IMG/VR virus record: IMGVR_UViG_3300006916_000047
Reading direction: 5' to 3' (one strand)
DNA length: 23,918 nucleotides
DNA from: an uncultured virus (IMG/VR IMGVR_UViG_3300006916_000047)
Lineage: Duplodnaviria; Heunggongvirae; Uroviricota; Caudoviricetes
Shown one piece after another: positions 1-23,169 of the stretch. The notes under the pieces were generated by a model. It was not told where the DNA came from. It worked only from the letters and a program-made list of their open reading frames with translations, and made no database searches. Both the position numbers and the translations under genes were made by a program. The number at the start of each line of letters is the position of its first letter. The first letter of the stretch is position 1.

Positions 1-203
1 CACCAGCATTTCCCAGTGGACACTCCATGTTGGCGTATGGATTGGAAAGAGTATTGGGCAAAAGGTTTCCCGAAAAGAAGAAAGAACTCAAAGCGATGGC
101 TGATAAAATCTCACTATCAAGAATGCAAATGGGAAGCCATTATCCAAGTGATATTCAAGCAGGAAAGAAAATAGGCTATATGTTAGGTGATGCTTATGAA
201 TGA
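1..203 (+). CDS. PAP2-superfamily phosphatase / haloperoxidase-like protein, 3' part (5' end outside window; not in the ORF track)
   Basis: Frame starting at nt 3 reads PAFPSGHSMLAYGLERVLGKRFPEKKKELKAMADKISLSRMQMGSHYPSDIQAGKKIGYMLGDAYE* (TGA 201-203). It contains the PAP2 motifs PSGH and SRxxxGxHYxxD. Confidence 0.85.
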   Translation, partial: PAFPSGHSMLAYGLERVLGKRFPEKKKELKAMADKISLSRMQMGSHYPSDIQAGKKIGYMLGDAYE

Positions 204-528
204 TTGGCAAAATGTTCTCAAAAGAAAGAAAGACCCTCGCCTAAAAAGGGCAGGAGTTTCGGGTTTTAACAAACCAAAAAGAACACCAAAGCACCCTAAA
301 AAATCTCATATTGTTGTAGCAAGAGAAGGAAAGAAAACCAAGACAATTCGCTTTGGGCAACAGGGAGTAAAAACAAATCAAACTGCTGGACAGCGTAGAG
401 CGTTCAAATCTCGCCATGCTAAGAACATCAAGAGGGGCAAACTTTCTGCGGCATATTGGGCGGATAAAGTAAAATGGAGTCCGAGTAAAACCAAGTCAAA
501 GAGTAAGAAATGGAAGAAGGGGTCGTAA
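196..528 (+). CDS. Small, very basic virus protein with N-terminal W-x-x-V-L-K tag
   Basis: AGGTGA (185-190) precedes ATG 196, which is preferred over GTG 187. K/R-rich; the motifs IRFGQQG, FKSRH and SAAYWA recall an uncharacterised family common in marine viruses (recall only). N-terminus MNDWQNVLKR. Confidence 0.7.
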   Translation: MNDWQNVLKRKKDPRLKRAGVSGFNKPKRTPKHPKKSHIVVAREGKKTKTIRFGQQGVKTNQTAGQRRAFKSRHAKNIKRGKLSAAYWADKVKWSPSKTKSKSKKWKKGS

Positions 529-530
529 AA

Positions 531-764
531 ATGGTTCGTAAGATGACAGATGATAGGCTAAAACAAGATGGCCGAGAGTTGGTTAAGCAATTAAGCGAAA
601 TGGCCGACACAATTAACGACATGAAAGAAATCGTGTATGAATTTGTAGGTGGAGAGAATGTTGATTTAGAAGAACTTAAGAGATTACTTTTAGGTTTTGA
701 TGCAAGAGTTTCTAATATTGAAGGAGCCTTTGCGAATATTTTTAGAAGTGCAAGGGATTCGTGA
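531..764 (+). CDS. Hypothetical small helical protein
   Basis: ORF 510..764. ATG 531, just after the upstream stop, is the likelier start. Its stop overlaps the terminase ATG (TGATG). Confidence 0.55.
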   Translation: MVRKMTDDRLKQDGRELVKQLSEMADTINDMKEIVYEFVGGENVDLEELKRLLLGFDARVSNIEGAFANIFRSARDS

Positions 765-2188
765 TGGAGTTAGATACATTCAACTTTGAACATGAAATGG
801 ATATGAAGTTATCCAAAAACTCTTTTCCATACTTCTTTCAAAATGTTCTTGGCTTTGATTTTCCTTCCTACATTCAAGAATGGCACGAATTGATGAACAC
901 CACGCAAAGAACAGTTATCATTTGTTCACGCGACCACGGTAAATCAGTATTCATGCATTCGTGGGTTGTGTGGAAACTCATTTTTGAAGAGCCTCCTTTT
1001 CAAATGCTTTACATTTCTTCTAACCAAAAGCAGACTCTCGTTCACATGAGGGACATTGATAAAATGTTCACCCATCCGATGCTCAAGAAATTCAAACCTG
1101 CGAGAGGTTGGGCTATCGGAAACATTACCCTCACCAATGGAAACCAAATCCTTGAGCGTTCAGTAGGCTCACAGATTCGTGGTTTGCACCCACAAGAAAT
1201 TGTTATTGACGACCCTTTGAAAGAGTTTAGTATGACTGGTATTCAAAAGGTGACCGATTGGTTTTATGGTGATATGATTCCCACACTTCACCATACCGCT
1301 TCTCTCCGTGTTATTGGAACTCCGTTCTCTTACACGGATATTTATCAGCAACTTGCAGAGAATCCCGCATATACAGTGAGAACATACCCCTGCCTAAATT
1401 CTCTCAATGAACCGTTATGGCCTGACCGTTGGAACTATGAAGCATTGATGGCCCGTAAAGCAGAAGTTGGCTCAATGATGTTCACACGGGAATATATGTG
1501 CGTTCCAATTTCAACAGGAACTTCTCTGTTTAATCCTGAATATTTAGATGCGGCGAAGAACAAGGATTTGGTTCTAAAACCACATCGTAGAGAGGGCATG
1601 AAATACTTTGTAGGTGTAGACCCCGCCATTTCAACAGACGGAGATTACAATGTGATTACTGTTATTGAGATGGACGAAGACGAAAATAAATCTATTATTT
1701 ATGTTGATAGAGCCAAGAATGTTCAGTTCCGAGAAAACATACAGAAGGTCAAAATTATCGGGCAACTATTTCGTCCAGAAGCAATCCTCTTTGAAACAAA
1801 TACTTTTGCCAAATCATTTACTCAAGAATTACGCCAAGTCGCTGATTTAAATATTCACGACTTCAATACCACCAGAAGAAAAAAGCAAGAAATTATTCTT
1901 AATCTTCAAATGACCCTTGAAAATGGTAAAATGAATTTCCCCTACGGCAATGAAGAAAGTCGGCGGGTTTCTTCTACTTTGATTGAGGAGTTATCCATGT
2001 TTGCCATCACCGAAAGAGGCAAGTTTGAGGGTATTGGCGCACATGACGATATGGTGATGAGCCTTGCTTTAGCAAATGCCGCTACTTATCAAGCCACGGA
2101 TAACTTCATACTTCTTGACGATTTGGGACTCTTTGAGGAGGCGAAGCCTGTAAGGACAGGCTATCGTGGAATCGGTTTGAACTTTTGA
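764..2188 (+). CDS. terL: Terminase large subunit
   Basis: Walker A SRDHGKS, Walker B IVIDD, motif III GTP, RNase H-fold nuclease residues GVDPA and HDDMVM. ATG 764 is coupled to the upstream stop (GTG 761 is an alternative start). Confidence 0.95.
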   Translation: MELDTFNFEHEMDMKLSKNSFPYFFQNVLGFDFPSYIQEWHELMNTTQRTVIICSRDHGKSVFMHSWVVWKLIFEEPPFQMLYISSNQKQTLVHMRDIDKMFTHPMLKKFKPARGWAIGNITLTNGNQILERSVGSQIRGLHPQEIVIDDPLKEFSMTGIQKVTDWFYGDMIPTLHHTASLRVIGTPFSYTDIYQQLAENPAYTVRTYPCLNSLNEPLWPDRWNYEALMARKAEVGSMMFTREYMCVPISTGTSLFNPEYLDAAKNKDLVLKPHRREGMKYFVGVDPAISTDGDYNVITVIEMDEDENKSIIYVDRAKNVQFRENIQKVKIIGQLFRPEAILFETNTFAKSFTQELRQVADLNIHDFNTTRRKKQEIILNLQMTLENGKMNFPYGNEESRRVSSTLIEELSMFAITERGKFEGIGAHDDMVMSLALANAATYQATDNFILLDDLGLFEEAKPVRTGYRGIGLNF

Positions 2189-2197
2189 GGTGATATT

Positions 2198-3556
2198 GTG
2201 CCTACCGCAGAACAGTATGATAAAATCTCGGAAAAGGCCAAAGAACTGGCTGAACTTCAAAGAAGAGAAGAGGAAGTCAAGGAAGAAGCAAACAGAGATG
2301 CTGATACCGAAATTTTCAAGACCCTTTATTCGGACTTTGTTATGTCCGAGTATGATGAAATTAATACGCTGTGTGATGTGTTAAAGGTAAATGCGAGTGA
2401 AGCACGAAAGATGATTGATGAGTTTCCTCAAGAATATACCGTAGAAGAGAAGAATATCCCCGACCTCATTAAGCAGATGAGAATGTCTCGCAGGAAACTA
2501 AAGGGAGAGAATAGGGACAATATGGCAAAGGCTATTGATACAATGATAGATGCCTACTCCGACCATTTATTTAAGTGCATTGATTCAATTTATTGGCTGG
2601 CTCCATACAAGAATCCTCTTTTAAAGATGAGATACAACGAAAAAGACTTGAGAAAACTGCATAAGATGAAAACTGTGGAGCAAAGAAGAGAAGTAGTAGA
2701 TGCTCTTTGTAAATACTGGGAAGCAGAAATAGAACAAAGTGGTATGGTATATGGCAAAGATTATTCTGTGCTTTCAAAAGAAATGAGAGTCGCAAAGAAA
2801 GCATTTCGTGAAAGTATTGCCAAGATTACGAATCAATCTCTCAATAAATCAAAAAAGGAAAAACAAAGAGAATTTATCTTGAAGACTGTTTGTGAAAACC
2901 ACGGGATAGGGGCTAGAATGATTCATGAAATGATGCCTACTGACTTACACAAAGCGAGTAGTCCGAATGTCATTTCCCAAGAGATTAAGAAGTTAGGAAT
3001 TGTTTCTGTAAATGGTGCATTTTACAAAATGCCCGATGAAATTAAGAAAAACATTTGGGCATACACGGCGGCATTTATTGACTCGGATGGCTACATTACT
3101 CTTGACCGTAAAATGAATCCAAGAGTCGGCTTAGTGGCTACGGGAGAAAGAGGAAAGGCTTTCATGCAGGAAATGTATAAGTCAATTGGATTTGGCCGTA
3201 TGCACCTTGACCAAAAATCACCCCAAGATACTCGGCTTATCAATCGGCTAAACTTCTATTCTCAAGACGATGTAGCCAGCCTTTTGACGAAGTGCTTACC
3301 CCACTTCCGCTTGAAGAAAGGAAACGCACAATTACTTTTAGAATTGATTCGCATGAAAAAATCATATAAGAAAAGCGACTGGTATAAGAGCCGTTGTGAT
3401 GAGATTTTTAAATTAATGAAGTGGGAGAATCACAAAGACCATGTGGGCTTTGACTGGGCAAAAGAGAACATTAACCTTGACGATATTCAAAAATATGCAG
3501 ATAATTGTAAAATGTCTGTGATGGATTCAATGGAACAAATTGGAACGGTGTTGTAA
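2198..3556 (+). CDS. Multidomain protein: helical/coiled-coil N-terminus, possible winged helix, C-terminal single-motif LAGLIDADG domain
   Basis: WAYTAAFIDSDGYI motif (about 3056-3097) followed by LAGLIDADG-like elements (IGFGRM, LPHFRLKK). GTG start follows TGAGGTGAT. Confidence 0.75.
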   Translation: MPTAEQYDKISEKAKELAELQRREEEVKEEANRDADTEIFKTLYSDFVMSEYDEINTLCDVLKVNASEARKMIDEFPQEYTVEEKNIPDLIKQMRMSRRKLKGENRDNMAKAIDTMIDAYSDHLFKCIDSIYWLAPYKNPLLKMRYNEKDLRKLHKMKTVEQRREVVDALCKYWEAEIEQSGMVYGKDYSVLSKEMRVAKKAFRESIAKITNQSLNKSKKEKQREFILKTVCENHGIGARMIHEMMPTDLHKASSPNVISQEIKKLGIVSVNGAFYKMPDEIKKNIWAYTAAFIDSDGYITLDRKMNPRVGLVATGERGKAFMQEMYKSIGFGRMHLDQKSPQDTRLINRLNFYSQDDVASLLTKCLPHFRLKKGNAQLLLELIRMKKSYKKSDWYKSRCDEIFKLMKWENHKDHVGFDWAKENINLDDIQKYADNCKMSVMDSMEQIGTVL

Positions 3557-3724
3557 ATGCCTCGCCAGCACTATCATATTTTTAAACATAAAGTAAGAAC
3601 CAAACTACCTAAGAAAATTAGATATGCTACCGTTTGTAGAAAGTGCAAGAAGACCAACAAAATTAGTGATTTATGTTTTACCTGCCAAATTGAACAAGCA
3701 AAGCATTGGGCAAAACCATATTGA
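3557..3724 (+). CDS. 55-aa basic C4 zinc-finger protein (not in the ORF track)
   Basis: MPRQHYHIFKHKVRTKLPKKIRYATVCRKCKKTNKISDLCFTCQIEQAKHWAKPY*. Pattern CxxC-x9-CxxC. The ATG directly abuts the upstream TAA and the ORF fills the gap between two genes. Confidence 0.7.
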   Translation: MPRQHYHIFKHKVRTKLPKKIRYATVCRKCKKTNKISDLCFTCQIEQAKHWAKPY

Positions 3725-3733
3725 GGAATTATT

Positions 3734-4183
3734 ATGACTTGGAAAGAAATACTTAAGGCTAGAATTAGCGGAAAATTGAGAAGATACATGGGCTATGCGA
3801 AGGCTTCCCAACATAATATCCGTGATAGAATGTCAATGGAAACTTTTGCTGAAAGAGTCCACAGTCAGTTGAGACGGATTTTGAGTATTTATGGCGTTGA
3901 AAAGCCAATTGAAAAAGAAGTATTTGATGAAATTAATCAAATGGATGAAAGCGACCCTAATATGCCCTTTGAACTTCCGTTTTCTTATGAAGAATATATG
4001 GAAAAATATGGGAATAAAATTCAAAGCAGGGGAGAAGAAGACGCTAAATTCCTTGACAGTCATATTAGTAGTGTTAAAGAAAGAAGAAAGGAAAGGGCAA
4101 GGAAAATGCGAGAAAAGAGAACTCCTGAATATTACCGCCAAACTTTGCCACAACCCCTAAGAACGAAAGACGAAGAGGAATGA
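3734..4183 (+). CDS. Hypothetical protein with N-terminal MTWKEILKA tag
   Basis: 149-aa ORF with GAGGA RBS upstream; charged and helical; no recognised domain. Confidence 0.7.
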   Translation: MTWKEILKARISGKLRRYMGYAKASQHNIRDRMSMETFAERVHSQLRRILSIYGVEKPIEKEVFDEINQMDESDPNMPFELPFSYEEYMEKYGNKIQSRGEEDAKFLDSHISSVKERRKERARKMREKRTPEYYRQTLPQPLRTKDEEE

Positions 4184-4238
4184 AGGGGCATCTTCATAAA
4201 GAGGGTTCAGCGTAGACAAACGAGGGGAGGCGGTCAGC

Positions 4239-5885
4239 GTGGTTGAAGAGAAGCGTCGTTTCAGTTTTACAAATTTGTTTAGGAGAACAACCCCAAAGCC
4301 AGAAGATAGGTCTATTTATAACATTGGTATTCAAGAAAGGCAACAGAATAACTTAATGACCGCACCGATTATTTATCACATCGTTCAAAATTCTGTTATC
4401 GCTAGAACCTGTATTACTCAACTTAAGCAAGAAATTTTCCGAAGAGGTTATGTCTGGGAGAAGGCCTACGAAGCAAGGTGCAAAAATTGCGGTAAAGAAC
4501 ATAAAAGACCCGTTCAAGAGTGTTCTCGTTGTGATAGCACTGACCTACAACTTCCCGATGTTAAACAATTAAAGTATGCAGAAGATTTTATTGAAGGTTA
4601 TGTCAATAAAGCAGAACAATTATTTATTGATGTTCTTAAAGAATTAGAAGACGACCTCAACATTATGGATGATGCTTACATTGTCCTTGTTAAGGAATAT
4701 TTCATTGATGGGAATCAAAAGATTAGAATGCATCGTATTAAAGAAGTTTATCGTGGCGACCCAGTGACCATGGCTATTTATTCCGATGAGTTAGGACAGC
4801 GAGGAACAAAAGGCTTTACTTGCGTCAATCATAGGCATTTCCTATCTACGGAACCCCATGAAAAATGTGAAGAATGTGGAAGCACTACTCACCCCGTTCA
4901 TTATGTGAATCGGGTGGGGGGCAAAGACCAGTATTTCATTAAGGGAGAGGTGCTTCATTTCAGCAAGTATAGCCCTTCCCGACTCTATGGACTATCGCCT
5001 ATCATCACCCTCTATAATCACATCACAACTCTTCTCGCTATGGAGAATTATGTTAATTCCTCGTACACCAAAAGCCGTATGCCGAGGGGCCTTTTGGCAG
5101 TGCAGACTCGCAACATGGATTCAATGCGTTCCTTTTGGCGTTCAGTCAAAGAAAAGATGGAAACAGACCCGCACTTTATTCCTGTTATGGGGATTGAAGC
5201 AGAAGGAGGAAAGGGTTCTGTTGAATGGATTAAGTTCATGGACAGTCTCAAGGAAATGGATTATGTCTCCGTCAAGGACGATTTAAGAGATAGGATTTCT
5301 GCGTTCTACGGTGTAAGCAAAGTCTTCATGGCTGACAACACTACAAGCGGTGGTTTGAATAATGAAGGCATGCAGATTTTGGTCACGAACAGAGCCGTTC
5401 AAATGGCACAAAATGTCTATAACAATTATGTGTTTCCGTTTTTGGTTAAGCAATTTGGAATCACTGATTGGAACTTAAAATTACCTCCAAGCGAAGAAGA
5501 GGATGAAATTGCTGTTCTTCGTAAGAGAGAGATTGAAGTAAATATTGCCGCATCTACAAAGAATCTTGGCTTTGAGGTAGAAATGGATGAAGATGGAAAC
5601 TTTACTTTCAAGAAACCTGAACCTCAACCTGAACAAACCCCTACTGAAACCGGAGATGAGCCAACAAAGAAAGACCCCCTCGCAGGTTCAAACTTAGACC
5701 AAAGAGATTTAGATGAACAAACAAGAATGTTTGCAGAAGGAGCAGGTTCAAAGCCCCAAGAAAATCCACCAGCCACAAGAAATAAAAGCAGGATGAGCGT
5801 AGGGCCAGATAAGCGAATGACTGGCTTACCGCAAGAGGCTGGAAATCAAAATGTTGATACGAGAAACGAAAGGAGGATACCCTGA
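4239..5885 (+). CDS. Portal protein with two Zn-ribbon-like insertions
   Basis: Lies between terL and the protease/MCP. Portal-like segments EVLHF, YGLSPI, MPRGLL and ISAFYGV. Cys clusters CKNC/CSRC and CVNH/CEEC. GGAGG at 4226-4230 precedes the GTG start. Confidence 0.9.
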   Translation: MVEEKRRFSFTNLFRRTTPKPEDRSIYNIGIQERQQNNLMTAPIIYHIVQNSVIARTCITQLKQEIFRRGYVWEKAYEARCKNCGKEHKRPVQECSRCDSTDLQLPDVKQLKYAEDFIEGYVNKAEQLFIDVLKELEDDLNIMDDAYIVLVKEYFIDGNQKIRMHRIKEVYRGDPVTMAIYSDELGQRGTKGFTCVNHRHFLSTEPHEKCEECGSTTHPVHYVNRVGGKDQYFIKGEVLHFSKYSPSRLYGLSPIITLYNHITTLLAMENYVNSSYTKSRMPRGLLAVQTRNMDSMRSFWRSVKEKMETDPHFIPVMGIEAEGGKGSVEWIKFMDSLKEMDYVSVKDDLRDRISAFYGVSKVFMADNTTSGGLNNEGMQILVTNRAVQMAQNVYNNYVFPFLVKQFGITDWNLKLPPSEEEDEIAVLRKREIEVNIAASTKNLGFEVEMDEDGNFTFKKPEPQPEQTPTETGDEPTKKDPLAGSNLDQRDLDEQTRMFAEGAGSKPQENPPATRNKSRMSVGPDKRMTGLPQEAGNQNVDTRNERRIP

Positions 5886-6250
5886 TGAGTGAATGGGAAG
5901 AAATTATTAAAGCGGCAAGAGATAGAAAGGGGAAAGTTGGTGGAGGAAAAGAAATTCCTGAAAAGGTTATAACTGGAAAAACCAAAAGACCTGTCCAAAC
6001 TAGAATGAAGGGCGGTAATCCAATTCAAGACATTGGCGCAAAAGACTCCCCTGAAAAAGATTTATTTGAATTTGGTAGAAAAAAGGAGAAGGAGTTCAGT
6101 GAAAAGATTGCTGACGAAGAACTTCAAGAACTTATGCAAATGAAAAGAAGTGAATTGATGGACGAAGTTATGGACAAGATAGGTTCTTTTAGTACAATGG
6201 AACTTATTAAACTAGTTGTTATGGCTAGAACAGGCGAATTGGAGGAGTGA
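5885..6250 (+). CDS. Hypothetical protein with N-terminal MSEWEEIIKA tag
   Basis: 121-aa ORF with TGATG overlap to the portal stop. Confidence 0.7.
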   Translation: MSEWEEIIKAARDRKGKVGGGKEIPEKVITGKTKRPVQTRMKGGNPIQDIGAKDSPEKDLFEFGRKKEKEFSEKIADEELQELMQMKRSELMDEVMDKIGSFSTMELIKLVVMARTGELEE

Positions 6251-6252
6251 AT

Positions 6253-6480: not shown

Positions 6481-6486
6481 GGTGAT

Positions 6487-8336: not shown

Positions 8337-8696
8337 ATGAGTTGGGACTATTATGAAGAAGGCATAACCTTTGAAATCAGTAAGAAAGAAGCACCAAAGA
8401 AAAAGATTCTTGATTCTTTGGACGGCAAGCAAAAGAAGCGACTCAAGAAGACCCTTCAAGCCGCCGAACCCACGGAATTTTTCGGCCAAGACTTCACCAA
8501 GTTAGGCGAACTGATTGAGACTCTACGAGAACTTGACCTCACCAAGTCCGATAAGAAGTTGAACAAGAAGATGAAGTCAATGGATGAGCGCAACATTGAC
8601 ATAGTGGCTACTGCTACGAAGTTGCGTAAGGAATATGAGTTGCTTTACCGACAACTCCGAGATTTAGTTTATCCACAGAAAAAGAGAGATGATTGA
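8337..8696 (+). CDS. Hypothetical helical protein in the head module
   Basis: 119-aa ORF with GGAG RBS upstream. Confidence 0.7.
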   Translation: MSWDYYEEGITFEISKKEAPKKKILDSLDGKQKKRLKKTLQAAEPTEFFGQDFTKLGELIETLRELDLTKSDKKLNKKMKSMDERNIDIVATATKLRKEYELLYRQLRDLVYPQKKRDD

Positions 8697-8697
8697 T

Positions 8698-8940
8698 ATG
8701 GCAGAAGAAAATACAATTAATGAAGAAATGCTTCAAATTATTAAAGCATTAACTGAAAAAATTGAGAGTTTGGAAAAGGCAGTATATAACAAAGATAACC
8801 TACTGATGAAGTCTGGCTTTGTTATTGCTGAAACACCTACCCCAACAATTGATAGTTTGGGTGCTTCTTCCGGCGTCAATGTTGATTCAATGGAGTGGTC
8901 GGACATTCATAAAATGGTTGAAAAGGCAGGTGGTCAATAA
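8698..8940 (+). CDS. Small coiled-coil protein with scaffold-like C-terminal motif
   Basis: ORF 8689..8940, with ATG 8698 likely. The C-terminal MEWSDIHKM matches MDWNTIHKM at the end of the protease/scaffold. Confidence 0.7.
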   Translation: MAEENTINEEMLQIIKALTEKIESLEKAVYNKDNLLMKSGFVIAETPTPTIDSLGASSGVNVDSMEWSDIHKMVEKAGGQ

Positions 8941-9182: not shown

Positions 9183-12134
9183 ATGCGCCTCTCAAACATT
9201 GAGAAGGATAAGCGTCCTTCGGAAGAGATTCTTCGTTTGTTTGAGAAAACGAGGGTGGCTTACCTTTCTGCCGCCAATGACCCCAATGAATACGGGAATC
9301 GTTGGCGTAAAACCGTGGATGTCATTATTGAGTCCTACAATGACTTGGACTCAGCCGCAAATGAAATAAAGGATTTTATTTCGGAAGACCTCATAGAAGA
9401 TAATGACATCAAAGACCCTTCCTCGCTTAAGGCAAAGGAGTTATTTGAAGCCATTAAAAATTTGCGCTATGCTTCGGATTTGGTAGATGACCCATTCGCA
9501 AAGCGTTTCAAAGGCAAGGTTTTGGAGGCATTACTTGAAAGTCCCGAACAGATGGTCAAGTTTGTGCATTATGCTTTACGAGAAGACAAGGAACCTCTTC
9601 CCAAAGAAGTTTATGCAATTAAAGACATGCAAGAAGACGATATTACCTATGGTTTAGAGGGTCTTGACCTAGAACCAGACGATATAGCCCTGTATATTAT
9701 TGAACATTACGGGGATGGAAAAGACTCCAAACGAACAGAAAGGGCTGTTAAAGCCGCTATGGAAATGTTAGACTTGTTAATGCTCTCAAAATACGATGAA
9801 GGCGACTTAGATGACCTAAAAGATATTGAGGGTGTAGAAACCCAAAGAGAGACAAAGGCTCTCTCTACAATTAAAAAGGAAAAGAAATCAGAAAAAGAAA
9901 AATCGCTGTCTGATTTTATTGTTCCAAATAAACCTATGTATAGAATTTTTGATATTGATGACATTAATCAACTAAAAGGTTTTAGTGGAGAATGGTTTGT
10001 TCAAGAAAAATACGATGGTATGAGAATTCAACTGCATAAGATTGATAATAATGTCAAGGTATTCTCTTACAATAAAAAACTTATTACAGATAAGTGCGGA
10101 GAAATTGTAAAGGAATTGAAGGCTAAACACTTTGGCGATTGCATTCTTGATGCAGAATTAATTCTTTTTGATGGGGAGGAATCCTTGCATCGGGCCGATA
10201 CAATCGCCCATGTGTTTAAAAATAAATATCCTAAAGCAACCCTCAAGTGCCATGTCTTTGACATTATGCGACATGAGAATCAAACGCTTCTTGATGAAGA
10301 GTTAGAAAACAGAATGACAATTATGTTCAACAATTATGCTCAACATTCAGCCGATGTTCTTAAATTCCCCTCAAAGAAAGATACTCGTAGAGCAGATAAT
10401 CTAAAAGATATTGCTGAATATGCAGAAAAAATTATGGAAATGCCTACTTCCGAGGGAGTCGTTATCAAAGATGCTACTTCCACCTATTATGTAGGAACAA
10501 AGAAGAACCCCAAGTGGATTAAGTGGAAGAAGTTTGTGGACTTAGATGTTGTCGTTCTTGACAAGAAGAAGACTAAAAGCAATCTATATTCTTATACCGT
10601 GGGTATTGGGCCTGTTGAGGAAGAAAACAAATTTACACAAGAAGTTAATGGCATCAAATACATGAATGTGGGTAAGGCCCTCAACACAAAAATTTCGGTT
10701 GATGTTGGTGAAATTATTCGTGTAAAGGTTGATGAGGTTAAGAATGCTGGTGATAGATATACTCTTTACTCCGCAAAGGTGATTGAAGTCCCCGAAGTAG
10801 AATACCCAGATAAAATCATCACTTTAGAATTATTAGCACAAGATACTAAAAAGTCTCTAAACTATTCTATTGAAGGATTGAAGAAAGGCATCACAATTAC
10901 TGACCATATTCACGGTACTGCTACCATTATTTGTAAATCCGATATGAGTGGATTTACTGTTTATGGTTTTGAAGAAGACAATCTCATGTCAAAGAATGCC
11001 ATCATCAATTTAGACGATTGGAAATCTCAAGCAGAAGAAATCATGAAAACAAAAGCAGGGACATTAACTACTGCTATTACAAATTATCTTCAAAACATGG
11101 GAGCAAAGACCGTAAAGCAAGTTCATAACTTCTTAATGTCAAAACATAAAGGTCTGTATGAAGATGTTGTTGATGGTGGCTTACAGGGTCTTAAAGAATG
11201 GGCAAATGCAAGAGAACATATTGAATTTAAAGAAAATAAATTGCATGGAGATGCTATCCTCAAAAGACTCTTAAAATCTCCAGTTTTAATCCATAGAGAT
11301 GCCGAGCCAGAAGAAAAGGAAATTGAGGATATTACTATTGACTATTCAAATAAAGATGGTGAATGTTGTAATAAATTAAAAGAGGCTGTTAAAACAAACA
11401 GAATACTGGTTCTTGATGTTCTTTCTGACGACTATGGCACTTATGAAAACTTTCGTAATAACATAGTAGAAGAAGAACAGAGCAATTGGGCAAAAACATA
11501 TGAAGAAGAAGTTAAGGTCATAGAAGATTCAATAGATATTTTAGAGTGTGATAGGTTATTAGGAGTGATAGATTACTTTCTCAATAATAAAGTTGGTGAT
11601 GTAGATTATGGCCCATTAGAACAAGCCTTAGAAGAATATCAAAATTGCATTCAAGGTGATTCTAGTTTTACAGACAAATATGCTATGCTTAAAGCAGAAT
11701 ATAAAACACCAGAAAAATACCGAGAAGGGCAATTTAAGTTATACTCTCGCAAAGATGACAATCTAAACATGGTGATGAAACTTGGTGATGAGACAATCAA
11801 CTGGTTAATTGATGTTCAAAACGAAGAAGAAATGTTTGACCTATTCGGAGCCGCAGGAAAGTACCCTGCTGAAGTTGCTCAAAACATTGACAGAGAAAAA
11901 ACAGTTGATGCCGGAACGGTCAAGTTAGGAATACAGAGAAACGGCTACCATGAATATTTCTTAGAAGGGAATAAGTTTGAGACGAAGTTTCATGTGCGAT
12001 ACCTGCCGGTTGGTGAAAATAAAATGTGGCTTGCTTGGACTGGCTATGAACAAAAACCCGCAGATAAAGAAGGCGATGAGGGGTTATGGGATATCTATGA
12101 GGACAAATTCGCAAGCAAGAAAATACCGAGATAA
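9183..12134 (+). CDS. lig: ATP-dependent DNA ligase with long N- and C-terminal extensions
   Basis: Nucleotidyltransferase motifs I (QEKYDGMR), III (ILDAEL), IIIa (HVFDIM), IV (EGVVIK) and V (WIKWKK), then an OB-fold-like segment. About 240 aa extra at the N-terminus and over 400 aa extra at the C-terminus. Confidence 0.9.
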   Translation: MRLSNIEKDKRPSEEILRLFEKTRVAYLSAANDPNEYGNRWRKTVDVIIESYNDLDSAANEIKDFISEDLIEDNDIKDPSSLKAKELFEAIKNLRYASDLVDDPFAKRFKGKVLEALLESPEQMVKFVHYALREDKEPLPKEVYAIKDMQEDDITYGLEGLDLEPDDIALYIIEHYGDGKDSKRTERAVKAAMEMLDLLMLSKYDEGDLDDLKDIEGVETQRETKALSTIKKEKKSEKEKSLSDFIVPNKPMYRIFDIDDINQLKGFSGEWFVQEKYDGMRIQLHKIDNNVKVFSYNKKLITDKCGEIVKELKAKHFGDCILDAELILFDGEESLHRADTIAHVFKNKYPKATLKCHVFDIMRHENQTLLDEELENRMTIMFNNYAQHSADVLKFPSKKDTRRADNLKDIAEYAEKIMEMPTSEGVVIKDATSTYYVGTKKNPKWIKWKKFVDLDVVVLDKKKTKSNLYSYTVGIGPVEEENKFTQEVNGIKYMNVGKALNTKISVDVGEIIRVKVDEVKNAGDRYTLYSAKVIEVPEVEYPDKIITLELLAQDTKKSLNYSIEGLKKGITITDHIHGTATIICKSDMSGFTVYGFEEDNLMSKNAIINLDDWKSQAEEIMKTKAGTLTTAITNYLQNMGAKTVKQVHNFLMSKHKGLYEDVVDGGLQGLKEWANAREHIEFKENKLHGDAILKRLLKSPVLIHRDAEPEEKEIEDITIDYSNKDGECCNKLKEAVKTNRILVLDVLSDDYGTYENFRNNIVEEEQSNWAKTYEEEVKVIEDSIDILECDRLLGVIDYFLNNKVGDVDYGPLEQALEEYQNCIQGDSSFTDKYAMLKAEYKTPEKYREGQFKLYSRKDDNLNMVMKLGDETINWLIDVQNEEEMFDLFGAAGKYPAEVAQNIDREKTVDAGTVKLGIQRNGYHEYFLEGNKFETKFHVRYLPVGENKMWLAWTGYEQKPADKEGDEGLWDIYEDKFASKKIPR

Positions 12135-12150: not shown

Positions 12151-12179
12151 CCAGATAACACAACGAAGGTTTGTTGGAA

Positions 12180-13382
12180 ATGTCCCTCCTACTCAAGAGA
12201 GAACAACTACAAGAGTTTCGGATTCTAAAAAGCGACAACCTAATGATTGGTGGATATGCAAGCATTGAAATTGTTGATAAGCAAAATGATTTAATCACAC
12301 TCAAAGCATTAAACGAAGCAGTAGATAAATACATGGAAAACCCAAAGTTTAGAAATGTAATGACAAATCATTCAAATGTTCAAGTCGGAGAAGTAATAAA
12401 ATCATACCGAGACAAAAGCGGAAAGTTATGGAAAACCGAAGTTGATGATGTAGGATTCTTTGTAGTAATTAAATTAAGAGACGACATAGAAAAAGCAAAG
12501 GAAATTAACCGAGGCATCAGAAAAGGTTCATTGAGGTCATTTAGTATTGGAGGACAGGCAATTCAAAAAATAAAGAAGAGTCATCCAGAATTAGGTCAAT
12601 ACAATGAAATAAGCAAATTAGAACTACACGAAATTACTATCTGCGAAAAAGGAATTAACCCCGAAGCAAAATTTGATATTTTGAAACAAGACAAAAAACA
12701 GGTGAAAAACATGAGCAAACTGGAAAAAGCACTGGAAGAGTTGGATGCACTAATGAATGAAGTGAATACTCTCCGAAAGGAAGAAGAAGAAGATATGGGC
12801 AAACTCGCTGATGAAGACGAGAAAATGATGCCTGAAAAGATGATGGACGAAAAGATGGAAGATTTGGAGTCTATGGAAACAGAAGACCCTGAAAGAGAAG
12901 CAAAGGCATATGTCTCTACTCTTGACGGTGCTGGTGTTGAAATTGGCGAACCTGCTGACAGAATCGTTATTGACAACGGAAAGCCAAGAGCAACGGATAT
13001 GCCAGTTGTTAAGGCATTTGAGAACACTGAATTGGAAACCCTTGACCTAAGCGTTGGAAACATTGAGAAGGCTTACGAGGCTTTCCGTCAAGAACAACTT
13101 GAGAAGTTGGCTTATGACAACCTCCAAAAGCAATTTGCACATCGCTTTGAGGCTGAAAAGGGAACCCGTGAGAACATCCTCGCAAAGTCCCAATACGATG
13201 CCGCTTCCGAGATTGCATCTCTTAAGGATGAATTTACCGCACTTCGCAAGTCTTTGACTTCCGAAAAGGCCCAAATCATCAAGGCTCAAGAAGAAGCCGC
13301 AATTACACTCCCATCAATGGATGAACTAGCCGAAATGGATTGGAACACGATTCATAAAATGGCTTTTGGAGGAAACCTTTGA
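12180..13382 (+). CDS. Prohead (capsid maturation) protease fused to a scaffold domain
   Basis: HK97/S78-like pattern IGGYAS..VDKQNDLI..NH..VG..SFSIGG..LHEITI..NPEA, then an acidic coiled coil. Directly upstream of the MCP. ATG 12180 is preferred over TTG 12171. Confidence 0.9.
   Translation: MSLLLKREQLQEFRILKSDNLMIGGYASIEIVDKQNDLITLKALNEAVDKYMENPKFRNVMTNHSNVQVGEVIKSYRDKSGKLWKTEVDDVGFFVVIKLRDDIEKAKEINRGIRKGSLRSFSIGGQAIQKIKKSHPELGQYNEISKLELHEITICEKGINPEAKFDILKQDKKQVKNMSKLEKALEELDALMNEVNTLRKEEEEDMGKLADEDEKMMPEKMMDEKMEDLESMETEDPEREAKAYVSTLDGAGVEIGEPADRIVIDNGKPRATDMPVVKAFENTELETLDLSVGNIEKAYEAFRQEQLEKLAYDNLQKQFAHRFEAEKGTRENILAKSQYDAASEIASLKDEFTALRKSLTSEKAQIIKAQEEAAITLPSMDELAEMDWNTIHKMAFGGNL
12711..13382 (+). 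CDS. Putative nested in-frame scaffold protein (223 aa)
   Basis: Internal AGGTGA (12700-12705) lies 5 nt before in-frame ATG 12711, at the protease/coiled-coil boundary. Confidence 0.6.
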   Translation: MSKLEKALEELDALMNEVNTLRKEEEEDMGKLADEDEKMMPEKMMDEKMEDLESMETEDPEREAKAYVSTLDGAGVEIGEPADRIVIDNGKPRATDMPVVKAFENTELETLDLSVGNIEKAYEAFRQEQLEKLAYDNLQKQFAHRFEAEKGTRENILAKSQYDAASEIASLKDEFTALRKSLTSEKAQIIKAQEEAAITLPSMDELAEMDWNTIHKMAFGGNL

Positions 13383-13391: not shown

Positions 13392-14726
13392 ATGGTAGGA
13401 TACATTAACACTATTGCAGATTTAGAAGCACAAACTTATGGACTTAACTTCAACGGAGCAAACAATATGCTCTTGAAGACCGCCGGAGCCGTTAGTGGAC
13501 TCCACGGTGGCCATGATGCCGCTACTCAAACCTCCCCAACTACTGGTATTGCTGGAAACCTTTACAATGTTCTTTTCGGACAGAAGGTTTGGTCAATGCT
13601 AAACCGTGAAGTGAACGCTCTTTCTGTTATGTCAAAGCGTCCTTATTCTTCAAGCGGTTGGAGAGTTCTTTCAAAGCGTCCTGCTGGTGGAACGGGCAAC
13701 ACCCATTCCTTTACCCAAACTGGAACGGATTTGGCTGGAACTGATGCTCCACGCCTTGACCATATCGGTGGTGTGCCAGAGAATGCTTCTCTTTCAACTT
13801 CCGGTGATGGTTTAATCGCTATTGCTCCCGAATACAGCACTCTTTTCATGAGTCCAAAAATCGTTGCTCATCAGTTTGATTTCAGCGAATTGGCTATGGA
13901 AATGGCTCAAATTGATGATGGTATCGGTGATATTAGAGCGCAAATGCGTGAAGATATGGGTAAGCATCACGCTGAATCCCAAAACCTCATGTTGATGGCT
14001 CCTCTTGAAGCATACCTTCAAGCAGATAAGACCAACGCCGCCGCAGAGATTGAGAGAAACTATACTTCGCTTTACAAGATTGTTTCGTCTAACGCTGAGT
14101 TAGACCAAATGGACGCAGATAACTTCCCTGTTTCTTCAATTACCAACGACATTTCGGAAGCATACCACATTTACGGAACCAACCGTGATAGTGCTTCTTT
14201 CCTTGATTGTGTCGTTAATGGTGCAAGCAGTTATGCTTCGGGTGGTTCTCGGCCATTTACTTTGAGCATTCTCAACGCAACGCTTCGTGAATTGCGACAG
14301 AACGGTGGCTCTCCAAAGGTTATTCTTACTGGATATGACACCCTTCAAACGCTTTCCGACCTCTTGCAGAGCCAAGAGCGATTTATGGACAGAAAGGAAA
14401 TTGTGCCAACCGTGAACGGTGTTCGTGGTGTTAAGGGTGCAGAAGTTGGTTTCCGTGTGGCAACCTACTACGACATTCCTTTGATTCCAGTTGCTCAAAT
14501 GCAAAGCACTTCGGCTGATTCGGGAACCATTTCGGATATGCTCTTATTGGACACTGACCACCTTTGGATGGCTGTTATGAAACCAACTCAATACTTTGAA
14601 GATGGTATTAGCAACGGAAACCCATTCGGCGTCGGACAACTCGGCAACCGAGCATTGTACCGAACAATTGCTGAAATGGGCTGTTCGTACTTCAAGGGTC
14701 AAGGCAAAATTACCAACCTTAAGTGA
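13392..14726 (+). CDS. Major capsid protein (HK97 fold)
   Basis: 444 aa, follows the protease/scaffold, strong GAGGTGA RBS. C-terminal pattern (..ATYYDIPLIP..MLLLDTDHL..GQGKITNL) is typical of HK97-fold capsids. Confidence 0.88.
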   Translation: MVGYINTIADLEAQTYGLNFNGANNMLLKTAGAVSGLHGGHDAATQTSPTTGIAGNLYNVLFGQKVWSMLNREVNALSVMSKRPYSSSGWRVLSKRPAGGTGNTHSFTQTGTDLAGTDAPRLDHIGGVPENASLSTSGDGLIAIAPEYSTLFMSPKIVAHQFDFSELAMEMAQIDDGIGDIRAQMREDMGKHHAESQNLMLMAPLEAYLQADKTNAAAEIERNYTSLYKIVSSNAELDQMDADNFPVSSITNDISEAYHIYGTNRDSASFLDCVVNGASSYASGGSRPFTLSILNATLRELRQNGGSPKVILTGYDTLQTLSDLLQSQERFMDRKEIVPTVNGVRGVKGAEVGFRVATYYDIPLIPVAQMQSTSADSGTISDMLLLDTDHLWMAVMKPTQYFEDGISNGNPFGVGQLGNRALYRTIAEMGCSYFKGQGKITNLK

Positions 14727-15807: not shown

Positions 15808-15816
15808 GGTGATATA

Positions 15817-16203: not shown

Positions 16204-16212
16204 GGTGGTTAA

Positions 16213-16431: not shown

Positions 16432-16432
16432 T

Positions 16433-16936
16433 ATGTGGAAAGAAATATTGAAGGCTCCTGTAAGGACTAGGAATGAGGTTTTCTTTCAAGATAAGCCCAA
16501 AAAATATAGAAGTAAATTTTTAGATTCGGGAGAGGAATTTGAGATTTTAGATGATGTGGGAAGTAGAATCACAGACTCAAAATTTGAAGGTTTAAGAGCA
16601 TGGGAATCCGAAGATAAAATGGCTAGAGGGACATTTAGAAAAGTTTCCAAATCTAAAAAAGGCCCACTTTGGCACATTGACGCATTTTCCGTAAATAAAA
16701 AATTAATGAATCAAGGCAAAGGAGAAGAATACCTTAGAGAAATGGTCAATGATTTGAAAGAAATAGAGGATTTGAAAATATATGGGCAACCTGTTCATAG
16801 AGCAGTATCATTTTGGAAGAGAATGAAAAGAAAGGGGATTGTGGATTTTGTTTTGCCACCCATTAATATGTATAGAGATGTGAGCGGAGGTTCAGTATTA
16901 AGGCCGCCAACTAGAGATTTAACAAGGCGTGGTTAA
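16433..16936 (+). CDS. GNAT-family acetyltransferase-like protein with N-terminal MWKEILKA tag
   Basis: HIDAFSVNKKLMNQGKGEEYL resembles GNAT motif A (acetyl-CoA-binding QGxG); AVSFWKRM resembles motif B. Confidence 0.7.
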   Translation: MWKEILKAPVRTRNEVFFQDKPKKYRSKFLDSGEEFEILDDVGSRITDSKFEGLRAWESEDKMARGTFRKVSKSKKGPLWHIDAFSVNKKLMNQGKGEEYLREMVNDLKEIEDLKIYGQPVHRAVSFWKRMKRKGIVDFVLPPINMYRDVSGGSVLRPPTRDLTRRG

Positions 16937-16938
16937 AA

Positions 16939-17607
16939 ATGTCCCTAATGACGGGCTTTGCTATTTTAGTTGGTGAAGCAATTATAGGATTCTACAAAAA
17001 AATTCATGCGATTAACTTCGGAGTTTATGGTGCAACAATGGTTGGAAAAACAACACTCAGTCATCAATTAAGAACAAGAGGAGAAGTGCCACAGATTAAT
17101 CAAAGAACAGTTGGCAAACATAGAGCATCAAGAAAGAATATTAAAATTGATGGAAACTCACACACAGTAAGAAGCGCAGATATTGGAGGAGAAGCAATTT
17201 ACTGGAAAGAATGGGAAAAGGATATGAAAGAACGCCGAGTCAAATATGTTATATTTATGATTGACCATAGGCATTTAGATAGCACTTCAAATTTAGACCA
17301 CCAATTAGCATGGAAATTTTTAATAGATACAATCATTTCAAACACATGGTCAAATGGCAAAAAGAAAAAAGACTCTGATTTTCCAATGGCAGTAGGTATT
17401 TGGGCAAATAAATATGATATATGGGGAAAGAAATATCCACTAGCAGAAGGGCAACAGATAGACAAACATGAAATATTTGAACCGTTTGCATACGGAATGA
17501 GAAAACTTAACGACAAAGGAATACCTTGTTTTAAATATATTGTATCAGCAAAGTCGGAACCCGAAATGGTTTATAGAGGAATTACCACGATGATAAAGGA
17601 TTACTGA
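16939..17607 (+). CDS. Ras-superfamily small GTPase, Arf/Sar1-like features
   Basis: G1 GATMVGKTT, G2 RTVG, G3 DIGGE, beta4 VIFMID, G4 NKYD and G5 SAK, in the right order and spacing; hydrophobic/amphipathic N-terminal helix. Confidence 0.88.
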   Translation: MSLMTGFAILVGEAIIGFYKKIHAINFGVYGATMVGKTTLSHQLRTRGEVPQINQRTVGKHRASRKNIKIDGNSHTVRSADIGGEAIYWKEWEKDMKERRVKYVIFMIDHRHLDSTSNLDHQLAWKFLIDTIISNTWSNGKKKKDSDFPMAVGIWANKYDIWGKKYPLAEGQQIDKHEIFEPFAYGMRKLNDKGIPCFKYIVSAKSEPEMVYRGITTMIKDY

Positions 17608-17612
17608 TTATT

Positions 17613-18152
17613 ATGTGGAAAAATATCTTGAAGGAACGCATTGTGCGAGACGGTAAAGAAATTGAATTTTCTAGGGAAATTTATCATGCTAGAACGGAAG
17701 AACAAATGTTAGACAATATTCGCAAACGCTTGAATGAAGTAGAGAAAAAACACCCAGTAATTGCAGACATTATTTCCCAAATATTAGAGTTAGAAGAAAA
17801 AAAGACCCTTTCCACTAAAAGAGCCTTTCAATCAATAGTCGCTATGTTAATTGAGATTGATATGAGAATTCATGTCTTTCCCCGCCGTAAAAAGAGAGCA
17901 AATTGGGACGATATAAACCCCATAGAAGAAGTACAAGAAATTGTTGCTATTCAAAACCTTATTGAGTCAGCAGGTTTGTTAGAAAAACACCCAAGAGAAA
18001 AGGAGTTGGTTTTAAGCCAAATTAAGTTAATGCGGAAAAGAGGGATAACTTCAACAGAAGCGCTTTCTGTAATTAAACCTCTTTTGAGAAAATTAAAAAT
18101 TAAGATTGTAAATAGAAAGGGAAGACTTAGAGCATGGAAATATAGGGAGTGA
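17613..18152 (+). CDS. Hypothetical helical protein with N-terminal MWKNILKE tag
   Basis: 179 aa; basic C-terminus that could be winged-helix-like (weak). Confidence 0.7.
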   Translation: MWKNILKERIVRDGKEIEFSREIYHARTEEQMLDNIRKRLNEVEKKHPVIADIISQILELEEKKTLSTKRAFQSIVAMLIEIDMRIHVFPRRKKRANWDDINPIEEVQEIVAIQNLIESAGLLEKHPREKELVLSQIKLMRKRGITSTEALSVIKPLLRKLKIKIVNRKGRLRAWKYRE

Positions 18153-18156
18153 TTAA

Positions 18157-18810: not shown

Positions 18811-18812
18811 AT

Positions 18813-19463
18813 ATGGGATTTTTAGGAACAAGTAATGGAACTGTTTTAGGAGCAGTTCAAGCACAGAACGACCAGCAGTTTAAGAATGTAAATAATTTAC
18901 TTTCTTTGCAGGATAACCATGTAGAAGAATTTTTCCAATACCATGGCGAAATGTTTTTGGCCGCACTAGAACAATTGATGGAAGATGTCGTTCAAAGAAC
19001 AGTCTCGGATATGTTGGGCAAATTGTCTTTTACAAATAATGGCGGTAATATGACGGTTAATCCAGATACTCTTATGGAGTACCAAAAAATCACACAAGAA
19101 AATATTGATTTAGACATTCAAAAAATTCTTGGGGCGGCAATCAATACCGAAGTCATCATGCAAAGAAAAATGGCAAAACAGCAATACCTTGAATCTCAAG
19201 GCTTTGGTGGGGGACAACCACAACAACCCTCCGCAGGTATGGCTGTGGCAGGGCTAACGGGAAATACTCAACAATACCAACAGATGCAGGGAGCCGTGAA
19301 CAATGGTTCCGGCTACCCTATTCCTCCAACTGGAACAGATGGCTACGGAAGGCCTTATTGGGTTGATGCTCAAGGGCAAATGTCATATGAGCCGCCATCA
19401 AGTGGGCTTCATTTAGGTGCGGCAATCCAAAAAGGTGCGGCTTGGGCTAAATGGTTAATGTGA
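18813..19463 (+). CDS. Helical protein with Q/G-rich linker, WW-like motif and amphipathic C-terminal helix
   Basis: AGGAGG RBS; GGGQPQQP and QQYQQMQG low-complexity region; GRPYWVD..MSYEPP; ends LGAAIQKGAAWAKWLM. Confidence 0.7.
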   Translation: MGFLGTSNGTVLGAVQAQNDQQFKNVNNLLSLQDNHVEEFFQYHGEMFLAALEQLMEDVVQRTVSDMLGKLSFTNNGGNMTVNPDTLMEYQKITQENIDLDIQKILGAAINTEVIMQRKMAKQQYLESQGFGGGQPQQPSAGMAVAGLTGNTQQYQQMQGAVNNGSGYPIPPTGTDGYGRPYWVDAQGQMSYEPPSSGLHLGAAIQKGAAWAKWLM

Positions 19464-19473
19464 GGCGTTTAAC

Positions 19474-22382: not shown

Positions 22383-22390
22383 GTGATAGT

Positions 22391-22951
22391 ATGTGGAAAG
22401 ATGTTATTAGAAAAAGTCGTTATAAGATGCCTGATGAAGAAAAGGTTTTTGCAGAGATTGACAGGATTGTTGATTACTATGAAGGTAGGCTCCATGCAGA
22501 GATTAGAAGTGCGGCTATGAGAATATACGAAAGAGATAGTCCCTATACCGGAGACGGGTTTATATTAGATACAATTAAGAAGGGGAATGTTCAGGTTGAG
22601 GCTTTGGGATTAGAATATAGAGACTCTAATCGGAGAGAGGAAGATGATAATTTAGTAGAATATCAATTTTATTATGTTGACCCACATTCTAGCGGCTATG
22701 ATAAAATTAAAATTAATTCTGTAGTAATTTACGGTAAGAATGAAAAACAAGGCAATAGCAAAATTACAAACTATCCCGATGTTGAAGATTACGATTCAAG
22801 AAAGTTCAAAAGAAGTGCCAAAGGTTATGCTAGAAATAAAGCCATGATGATGGAACCTCCAGAAGAAGAAGGATTACAGCAATACAAAAAGTATGCAGAT
22901 ATAACAGAAGATTTGATGGAAAACATCGTAAGGGATATTATGGGGTTGTGA
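22391..22951 (+). CDS. Hypothetical protein with N-terminal MWKDVIRKS tag
   Basis: 186 aa; TAGGTGAT RBS. Confidence 0.7.
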   Translation: MWKDVIRKSRYKMPDEEKVFAEIDRIVDYYEGRLHAEIRSAAMRIYERDSPYTGDGFILDTIKKGNVQVEALGLEYRDSNRREEDDNLVEYQFYYVDPHSSGYDKIKINSVVIYGKNEKQGNSKITNYPDVEDYDSRKFKRSAKGYARNKAMMMEPPEEEGLQQYKKYADITEDLMENIVRDIMGL

Positions 22952-22953
22952 AT

Positions 22954-23169
22954 ATGTGGGAAGATATTTTAAAAAGAGTGGACAATAACTACGACAGATT
23001 AGAAAGTGCTATTGAAGATGCAATAGATGAAGCAGAAAATACAAAGAAACCCCAATATATCAAAGAGAGCGATGATGGGACATACTTTATAGACAGTAAA
23101 AAACAAAGATATTATGGCGATTACATAGTAGCAATTGTTAATGCCGATGGCAAAGTAGAAAGAAAGTGA
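22954..23169 (+). CDS. Small hypothetical protein with N-terminal MWEDILKR tag
   Basis: ORF 22948..23169; ATG 22954 chosen by analogy with the other tagged ORFs. Confidence 0.65.
   Translation: MWEDILKRVDNNYDRLESAIEDAIDEAENTKKPQYIKESDDGTYFIDSKKQRYYGDYIVAIVNADGKVERK

Follow-up and report, generated by a model that had tools for sequence, protein, structure and literature searches.

Why do seven proteins that otherwise show no resemblance to each other begin with almost the same short peptide? This question is raised by a 23,918-nucleotide (nt) stretch of DNA from an uncultured tailed virus (IMG/VR record IMGVR_UViG_3300006916_000047), the whole of which was analysed and is referred to here as the window. 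Seven of its genes encode N-termini built on the pattern W-x-x-[IV]-[LI]-[KR], hereafter the tag, and an original prediction proposed that the tag directs interchangeable proteins into the viral head. Comparison of the window with related genomes indicates that the tag is a portable add-on, selected at the peptide level and placed on captured genes. The best reading is that it belongs, as a portable terminal address tag, to one large clade of viruses of the magrovirus type, magroviruses being tailed viruses of marine group II archaea. That the address in question would be the inside of the procapsid is a proposal to which we assign roughly an even chance.

The seven N-termini, MNDWQNVLKR (position 196), MTWKEILKA (3734), MSEWEEIIKA (5885), MWKEILKA (16433), MWKNILKE (17613), MWKDVIRKS (22391) and MWEDILKR (22954), read in the sequence exactly as first reported, and the synonymous codons quoted for them (ATA CTT AAG, ATA TTG AAG, ATC TTG AAG and ATT TTA AAA) are likewise right. 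Translated in all six frames, the window has seven plus-strand occurrences of W..[IV][LI][KR], in every case 0–3 residues past the ATG of an open reading frame (ORF) of 71–186 amino acids (aa), while the one minus-strand match lies within a 10-residue dead frame. When the residues of the 32 window proteins were permuted 20,000 times, the mean number of N-terminal matches was 0.004 and the maximum 1, versus the seven of 32 proteins observed. Moreover, a position-specific scoring matrix (PSSM) built from 107 tags of other genomes ranked the window's seven tags first among the 7,630 six-mers of the window proteins. The large terminase (terL), portal, ligase fusion and major capsid protein (MCP) begin without the tag, as had been claimed, and so does the prohead protease.

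All seven tagged genes lie on the plus strand. The first (196–528, 110 aa; tag MNDWQNVLK at 196–222) encodes a small basic body that belongs to phrog_7595, a marine-phage family of very large size. The second (3734–4183, 149 aa; MTWKEILK at 3734–3757) occupies a variable slot before the portal gene, and no Pfam or PHROG family was found for it. The third (5885–6250, 121 aa; MSEWEEIIK at 5885–5911) directly follows the portal gene; its family has 5 members in the fetched loci, each of them tagged. The fourth (16433–16936, 167 aa; MWKEILK at 16433–16453) fills a slot before a P-loop gene, a position where relatives with the same upstream flank carry other tagged genes. The fifth (17613–18152, 179 aa; MWKNILK at 17613–17633) lies in a slot between the P-loop gene and a gene for a 217-aa protein, which we call slot B, and the sixth (22391–22951, 186 aa; MWKDVIR at 22391–22411) and seventh (22954–23169, 71 aa; MWEDILK at 22954–22974) share another, slot C. 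Look-ups in the ESM Atlas for 17613–18149 and 22391–22948 returned no usable match. The count of seven holds as far as it goes, all seven being real, and is an undercount: the window start cuts through an eighth tagged gene, encoding a 191-aa PAP2-family phosphatase, whose C-terminal part occupies 3–203 of the plus strand and whose start, MNWFSILKK, is found at position 12198 of G001, the record that overlaps the window. G001 contains 18 N-terminal matches versus the seven of the window, with a further block of tagged genes in its 12.7 kb upstream of the window. The label GNAT given to one of the tagged proteins did not survive, as none of the seven matches this family by Pfam at E values up to 5. 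A real GNAT gene, which is untagged, is present upstream of the window (G001 10915–11424).

The signal extends through related genomes and follows the strand that encodes the MCP. In G001 to G005 this strand carries 18, 16, 14, 16 and 15 N-terminal matches, and matches elsewhere are at chance level. The tag is not equally common in replication genes: it starts 59 of 279 ORFs on the MCP strand versus 1 of 281 on the opposite strand (Fisher p 1.6e-18), counts that rest on a crude ORF caller and include spurious ORFs on both strands. The sole opposite-strand exception is a hydrophobic ORF of 38 aa. At the level of DNA, the pattern ATG NNN TGG NNN NNN RTH HTN ARR is matched 14, 14, 9 (plus 2 on the other strand), 13 and 10 times in the five genomes, and the same pattern reversed gave 0 matches. 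The tagged genes are found in two settings, a block of small genes flanked by the divergent region and the terminase gene, and scattered positions within the head and tail module.

Alignment of 125 non-redundant tagged proteins gave the consensus M, S/T/N or no residue, W, K/E/F/Q, D/N/E/S, I/V, L/I, K/R. Among these tags I outnumbers V at the first hydrophobic position (110 versus 15), L outnumbers I at the second (93 versus 32), and the last residue is K in 120 and R in 5; sequence conservation ends right after this residue. As the original prediction held, conservation is at the peptide rather than the DNA level. The 125 tags are encoded by 120 distinct 21-nt versions that use all six Leu codons, and across the I-L-K codons the third-position identity is 0.43 versus 0.97 at second positions. 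The claim that the proteins are unrelated past the tag also withstood comparison, since among relatives the tagged proteins, with their first 12 residues trimmed, fall into about 92 BLAST families (one extra "family", the MCP, was excluded as an artefact of the relaxed pattern). Taken with the 120 DNA versions, this diversity bears out the description of a modular tag on unrelated proteins. Pfam matches were obtained for 5 of 85 tagged representatives (PAP2, DUF6321, DUF6943, DUF5754 and a weak helix-turn-helix) and PHROG matches also for 5 of 85, and each of these matches begins past the tag.

The tagged proteins range from 38 to 994 aa in length and look soluble by sequence, with a transmembrane-like segment in 0 of the 72 of 45–250 aa versus 34 of 344 untagged small ORFs. 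The motif is strongly terminal. In six related sequences totalling 126,975 residues, W..[IV][LIH][KR] lies within 5 residues of the N-terminus in 83 cases, in the last 25 residues in 15 and internally in 5, of which 2 are starts missed by the ORF caller.

Two features of tagged starts deserve separate mention. In G001 (locus L081), seven small tagged genes in tandem at 4120–5870 share a near-identical 28-nt junction, AAATGCAGGAGAGATTACAATGAGTTGG, that spans the ribosome-binding site and start, the tag codons downstream of it being variable. Its conservation exceeds that of the tag DNA, which suggests a regulatory element or a duplication of local scope. In addition, directly before the tag of one family (I-N-W-R/K-x-I-L-K) at G001 11628–11654 there is no ATG, GTG or TTG; the family is also present at about 690 in G003 and about 62450 in G004. 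The codon at its Met position in G001 is ATT, which overlaps the stop of the preceding gene and is preceded by a good Shine-Dalgarno sequence, and this arrangement suggests that the family starts at an ATT or ATA codon.

The clearest view of the tag as an addition comes from the first tagged gene of the window, 196–528. Its family has at least 8,000 database members. Among its best 120 matches, all at least 70% identical, only 6 are tagged; the untagged homologues have starts such as MPKKKDPRL, and their alignment begins one residue past the Lys of the tag. The body is about 83% identical to untagged homologues (range 81–87%) from cultured marine bacteriophages and thousands of metagenome contigs. 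The cultured homologues come from roseophages, cyanophages and a SAR116 phage, and the match covers the tag in 0 of 44 records. In Roseophage CRP-13, gp69 is 81% identical over the body, starts with MSVPDRVK and adjoins the endolysin gene. Similarity of this degree suggests that the gene passed recently between viruses of bacteria and those of archaea. The 196–528 protein also weakly resembles one portion of the "minor head protein and DNA pilot" PHROG.

The placement of the tagged genes between core morphogenesis genes, and the variability of the set, also proved as originally described. Across 49 loci slot B is empty in 27 and holds one gene in each of the other 22; 21 of these 22 genes, which represent 12 families, are tagged. 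Slot C, surveyed in 27 loci, is empty in 18, and the other loci hold 12 genes from 9 families, 10 of which are tagged. Cassettes that share one slot bring their own, differing tags; therefore the tag moves with the gene and is not a resident sequence of the slot.

A near-copy of the tag is found on the scaffold. The prohead protease of the window (12171–13382, plus strand), an S78 protease of assemblin-like fold, is fused to a helical scaffold domain whose C-terminal end reads ...EMDWNTIHKMAFGGNL, with MDWNTIHKM at 13335–13361. A separate, 83-aa helical scaffold-like protein (8689–8940, plus strand) ends in ...SMEWSDIHKMVEKAGGQ, with MEWSDIHKM at 8890–8916, 7 residues from its C-terminus; its sequence aligns to the C-terminal 50 residues of the protease-scaffold (27% identity, E 0.003). 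The motif M[DE]W..IHKM is present near the C-terminus in 81 of 82 relatives of the protease-scaffold and in 39 of 41 relatives of the 83-aa protein. The first six positions of this scaffold-tail motif are those of the tag, M-x-W-x-[DE]-[IV], while the next two positions are only partly alike. More distant relatives were collected as the 150 best matches of the protease-scaffold among 1.84 billion representative proteins (50% identity representatives). M[STNDE]W.[DEN][IV] lies in the last 30 aa of 14 of these 150 proteins and has 0 occurrences in their other 68,970 residues; therefore the first six positions of the tag are old and conserved in the scaffold tails of this protease family.

An AlphaFold2 (AF2) model of the protease-scaffold (predicted local distance difference test score, pLDDT, 80.5) consists of a protease domain, a floppy linker, two long helices and two short helices at residues 380–385 and 388–396, the last of which is the W..IHKMAF motif. 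The fold of the protease domain matches herpesvirus assemblins and T4 gp21 (5jbl, TMt 0.58). A family of about 375 aa in the tagged block presents the reverse arrangement, with a tag-like motif at its extreme C-terminus (KKSWQDILRW, KKQWREILKGL, KKSWIEMLWA) and none at its N-terminus; its members lie at G002 82846–83970, G003 76790–78049, G004 49695–50822 and G005 53996–55114. The HK97-type MCP (13392–14726, plus strand; identified by Pfam and PHROG) is the presumed receptor of the tag. Its N-terminus (residues 1–29, 13392–13480) is highly conserved, with an invariant L27-L28-K29 that follows a length-variable loop; in some relatives this position reads S-D-I-L-K or N-S-I-L-K. The L-L-K is a possible propeptide cut site, which would fit cleavage after Lys.

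Given this near-copy of the tag on the scaffold and protease tails, capsid targeting is the best reading. In other tailed phages and in herpesviruses, a scaffold part of this kind docks on the inner face of the capsid protein. The tag reproduces the first six positions (M-x-W-x-D/E-I/V) of a short helix close to the C-termini of the protease-scaffold and small scaffold, and would bind the same site on the capsid protein during procapsid assembly. The head would in this manner be loaded with small soluble accessory proteins from a large set that is exchanged rapidly, some of them captured from bacteriophages and then tagged. Afterwards the assemblin-type protease might cut the tag off behind its Lys, and the cargo might enter the next host along with the DNA. 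Docking on the capsid protein, encapsidation, clipping and delivery are all conditional steps, and the last two, which the original prediction had also proposed, are further and weaker extrapolations from the sequence. That exchangeable soluble proteins are loaded into the procapsid by a terminal address tag that mimics the scaffold docking helix is a model we consider evenly balanced. From the original interpretation, the modular, peptide-level character of the tag and its place on variable genes between core morphogenesis genes are retained, the captured genes and the location in the capsid arm lend it support, and its GNAT label is dropped.

Several data weigh against this model, part of them from three sister lineages that were collected through divergent protease-scaffolds, with N-terminal tags counted on the protease strand and on the other strand. 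The window lineage has 65 and 0 tags, respectively, in 909 kb, next to scaffold tails MEWSDIHKM, MDWSDIHKM and MDWNTIHKM. Lineage P0124 has 144 and 0 in 864 kb (tails MDWSDINAL and MSWDDINNL) and lineage P0128 has 64 and 0 in 807 kb (MSWDEIHGL, MSWNEVHEL and MDWSDLDSL), whereas lineage P0131 is at background, with 8 and 10 in 947 kb (MSWEEVHQL). Despite their differing scaffold tails, P0124 and P0128 are densely tagged with the identical consensus, and no co-variation of tag and tail was detected across lineages at W+4 to W+6; therefore the L-K of the tag does not track the tail, and a Lys in the tail is not general. Indeed, the sister tails INAL, IHGL and LDSL lack the Lys though the tags keep I-L-K. 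Conversely, P0131 has the similar tail MSWEEVHQL, yet five of its genomes, of 86–107 kb, contain 0 matches to the DNA pattern. Within the window itself, the PSSM placed WSDIHK of the 83-aa protein ninth among the 7,630 six-mers and WNTIHK of the protease outside the top 16.

The number and nature of the tagged genes tell against capsid loading as well. Each genome has 14–18 of them, including proteins of 681–994 aa, and we know of no capsid for a genome of about 90 kb that holds so many kinds of cargo, nor of a capsid cargo set with proteins of such size. Their main block, between the divergent region and the terminase gene, could consist of early genes. The AF2 model of 196–528, made with 70 homologues, was too poor (pLDDT 51.8) to give the shape of the tag. 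Finally, KFDILK (12669–12686), which stands at the end of the protease domain and is invariant in 56 of 56 unique relatives, was considered as a tag-like cleavage site and rejected. It forms the confident, buried-looking last beta strand of the AF2 fold, and distant S78 relatives end this domain with NPxAKFxILK, often at their very C-terminus. The broader claim that the clade uses an eight-residue zip code, derived from the scaffold helix, to load dozens of proteins and inject them into the next host seems to us somewhat short of an even bet.

In lineage P0131 (loci L106–L179, genomes G006–G010), the protease-scaffold is 46% identical to that of the window, and the lineage forms a natural contrast group for finding the receptor of the tag. 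A count of N-terminal 3-mers for another tag in this tag-less lineage showed nothing and was confounded by core-gene families.

Other explanations of the shared peptide place its partner elsewhere. It may bind a non-capsid partner, such as a viral or host chaperone, an adaptor protein (ubiquitin-like or of another kind) or a site at a factory or membrane, and serve the folding, stability or localisation of late accessory proteins, with the scaffold and protease using the same partner. We regard this as unlikely. A terminal motif this short, with W, I and L on one hydrophobic face, would be typical of peptide-in-groove binding, W-x-x-I resembles an Atg8-binding core, genes for a Cpn60/TCP-1 chaperonin and a ThiF-like protein are present in these viruses, and so many tagged genes suit a general handling signal better than a cargo list. 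However, the chaperonin is encoded in 5 of 5 genomes of the tag-less P0131 lineage, so its presence does not track the tag and its candidacy as partner is weakened. Accessory genes of the replication arm also carry no tag, and among core proteins it is shared only by those of head assembly. Alternatively, the tag could be a recognition site of the head protease or a scaffold handle that leads accessory proteins to be processed, activated or destroyed without packaging, the scaffold and protease tails carrying it as substrates too. This explanation, which we hold to be rather improbable, draws on the sharp stop of the tag at its Lys, the T4 gp21/assemblin fold of the protease, the invariant L-L-K of the MCP after its variable N-terminal loop and the I-H-K-M of the tails in the window lineage. 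It is at odds with the Lys-less tails INAL, IHGL and LDSL of sister lineages, whose proteases are at least 55% identical and whose tags keep I-L-K, and KFDILK is no help to it, being a structural strand. Prohead proteases of the assemblin/gp21 fold are generally active inside the procapsid, so entry into the head would still be implied.

Two further explanations were weighed. In one, the shared start has no role as a peptide and is a feature of nucleic acid or gene flow, either a translation-initiation context for closely coupled genes or a recombination joint for the swapping of cassettes, and indeed the tagged genes begin 1–9 nt after the preceding gene, AAA is preferred over AAG at W+1 (43 versus 2), the tandem run of G001 has its common 28-nt junction, and cassettes in the same slot differ between close relatives. 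We consider it very unlikely because the 125 tags have 120 distinct DNA versions with all six Leu codons and low third-position identity, the same peptide recurs at the C-termini of the scaffold, the protease and the 375-aa family, and swapped cassettes carry their own differing tags. The invariant residue, Trp, has a single codon, for which we know of no initiation advantage. In the other, the tagged genes are diverged paralogues of one ancestor in which only the N-terminus is still recognisable. Many tagged genes do lie in tandem runs, and most tagged proteins have no detectable relatives outside these viruses. Those with outside relatives belong, however, to the unrelated families PAP2, DUF6321, DUF6943, DUF5754, phrog_7595, phrog_17747 and phrog_14910, whose outside members lack the tag, and lengths of 38 to 994 aa fit a single ancestor poorly, making this the least credible of the explanations.

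Capsid loading by mimicry of the scaffold tail has parallels in known systems. T4 internal proteins carry an N-terminal capsid-targeting sequence (CTS) of about 10 aa that is cut off by the prohead protease, and HK97 gp4 cleaves after Lys. The internal proteins of T-even phages are diverse and have only a capsid-targeting sequence common to all (PMC3012670). Like the CTS of IPI–III and Alt, the tag is a short N-terminal peptide on otherwise unrelated proteins encoded at polymorphic loci, so that the gene set differs between close relatives, and the head protease has the gp21 fold in both cases. Unlike in T4, there are 14–18 tagged genes per genome rather than a handful, the virus is archaeal, and the tag resembles the scaffold's own tail, a likeness not described for T4. 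The tag bears no sequence likeness to the T4 CTS as we know it, and the tagged proteins gave no PHROG or Pfam match to internal-protein families; the analogy is functional only. Encapsidation and clipping are proven in T4 and putative in the magrovirus system.

The phage 80alpha and its satellite SaPI1 provide a precedent for copying a scaffold terminus. The last 16 residues of the 80alpha scaffold form an amphipathic helix and a hook with an RIIK motif that bind beside the N-arm of the capsid protein, and SaPI1 CpmB copies this helix and hook to bind the capsid protein (PMC5644958). In both systems a conserved short terminal scaffold helix is copied by a second, unrelated protein, and the motif ends in two hydrophobic residues and a Lys (RIIK in 80alpha, I-L-K or I-I-K in the tag). 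In contrast to the tag, which is N-terminal and spread over about 92 families, the copy in CpmB is at the C-terminus of one competitor that changes capsid size, and no homology is claimed. Encapsulin cargo-loading peptides, which are short and terminal, direct diverse cargo into a shell of the HK97 fold and are transferable to foreign proteins (PMC7355545). The tag would resemble them as a short terminal address on diverse proteins for a shell of this fold. The encapsulin consensus is a G-S-L type motif, unlike that of the tag, and encapsulins contain neither DNA nor a protease or scaffold, whereas the shell here is a viral MCP encoded beside portal, terminase and tail genes and must also take a genome of about 90 kb. 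Herpesvirus assemblin and HK97-type fusions likewise join an assemblin-fold protease to a helical scaffold and have a C-terminal end in common with a separate scaffold protein, an end that in herpesviruses binds the major capsid protein. To our knowledge, these fusions have no cargo tags. The herpesvirus system is defined by its release and maturation cleavage sites, counterparts of which are hypothetical in the magrovirus protease-scaffold. Full-text literature searches, which covered three magrovirus papers without their supplementary annotation tables, returned no mention of the tag. In kind it would be a variant of capsid-targeting and cargo-loading peptides.

The assignment to magrovirus-type viruses derives from the gene content. 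The window genes lie on the plus strand only, with spacings of −25 to +55 nt. They include the large terminase (764–2188) and portal (4239–5885), both identified by Pfam and PHROGs, a 452-aa protein with a weak HNH match after the terminase (2198–3556; Pfam/PHROG) and a 983-aa protein (9183–12134) with a DNA ligase domain (DNA_ligase_A_M, E 2.9e-29, residues 264–449) and large N- and C-terminal portions that have no explained match. This ATP-dependent DNA ligase is positioned between portal and protease, inside the structural module. A ligase within the structural module is the magrovirus hallmark singled out by Philosof et al. (PMC5434244), and both structural-module insertions, of the 2198–3556 and 9183–12134 types, are mentioned for magroviruses in that paper. 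The window spans the capsid arm alone, and two further magrovirus traits, a genome of 80–100 kb and an archaeal-type replication arm, were assessed on relatives. The opposite strand of G002, a complete relative of 96 kb, encodes a split family-B polymerase, a second ligase, the Cpn60/TCP-1 chaperonin, a ribonucleotide reductase, a UvrD helicase and the ThiF-like protein. Thus, from the ligase in the structural module and the opposite-strand gene set of G002, we read the window as coming from a magrovirus-type archaeal tailed virus, of which it represents the capsid arm. Under this assignment the host would be a Poseidoniales archaeon. The nearest cultured relatives of its MCP are haloarchaeal tailed viruses (24% identity) and methanogen viruses, and IMG/VR contains 591 relatives on contigs of up to 96 kb. 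A scan of species-representative genomes with the MCP gave as its sole match a 12.2-kb contig in a Maricaulis sp. metagenome-assembled genome (66% identity), which is probably a viral contig misbinned with the bacterium.

Two conserved genes of the window are also of note. The P-loop NTPase-like gene that borders slot B (16939–17607, plus strand; weak MMR_HSR1 match, E 0.0016) has a conserved location, with head-completion genes on one side and tail genes on the other, which is unusual for an NTPase. The core gene at 8337–8696, which follows the gene for a 611-aa head protein, begins M-S/T-W-D-Y-Y in the window, G002 and G005, a start that shares the M-S-W half of the tag but lacks I-L-K.

Few archaeal viruses of the surface ocean are as abundant as magroviruses, yet almost none of their small genes has a known function. 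The tag sorts about one-fifth of capsid-arm ORFs (59 of 279) into one functional class and names its candidate partners, namely the capsid protein, the scaffold tail and the protease. The tagged homologue of bacteriophage proteins also points to genes having passed recently between viruses of bacteria and of archaea, the tag being added once they arrived. If cargo loading is true, the tag predicts which proteins of an uncultured virus-host system enter the host first, making these candidates for host takeover or counter-defence, and it would provide a minimal peptide, a natural and ready-made handle, with which foreign proteins could be packaged in HK97-fold shells and archaeal virus heads. 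The magrovirus capsid would then be a protein-delivery vehicle at a scale unknown among viruses of this size.

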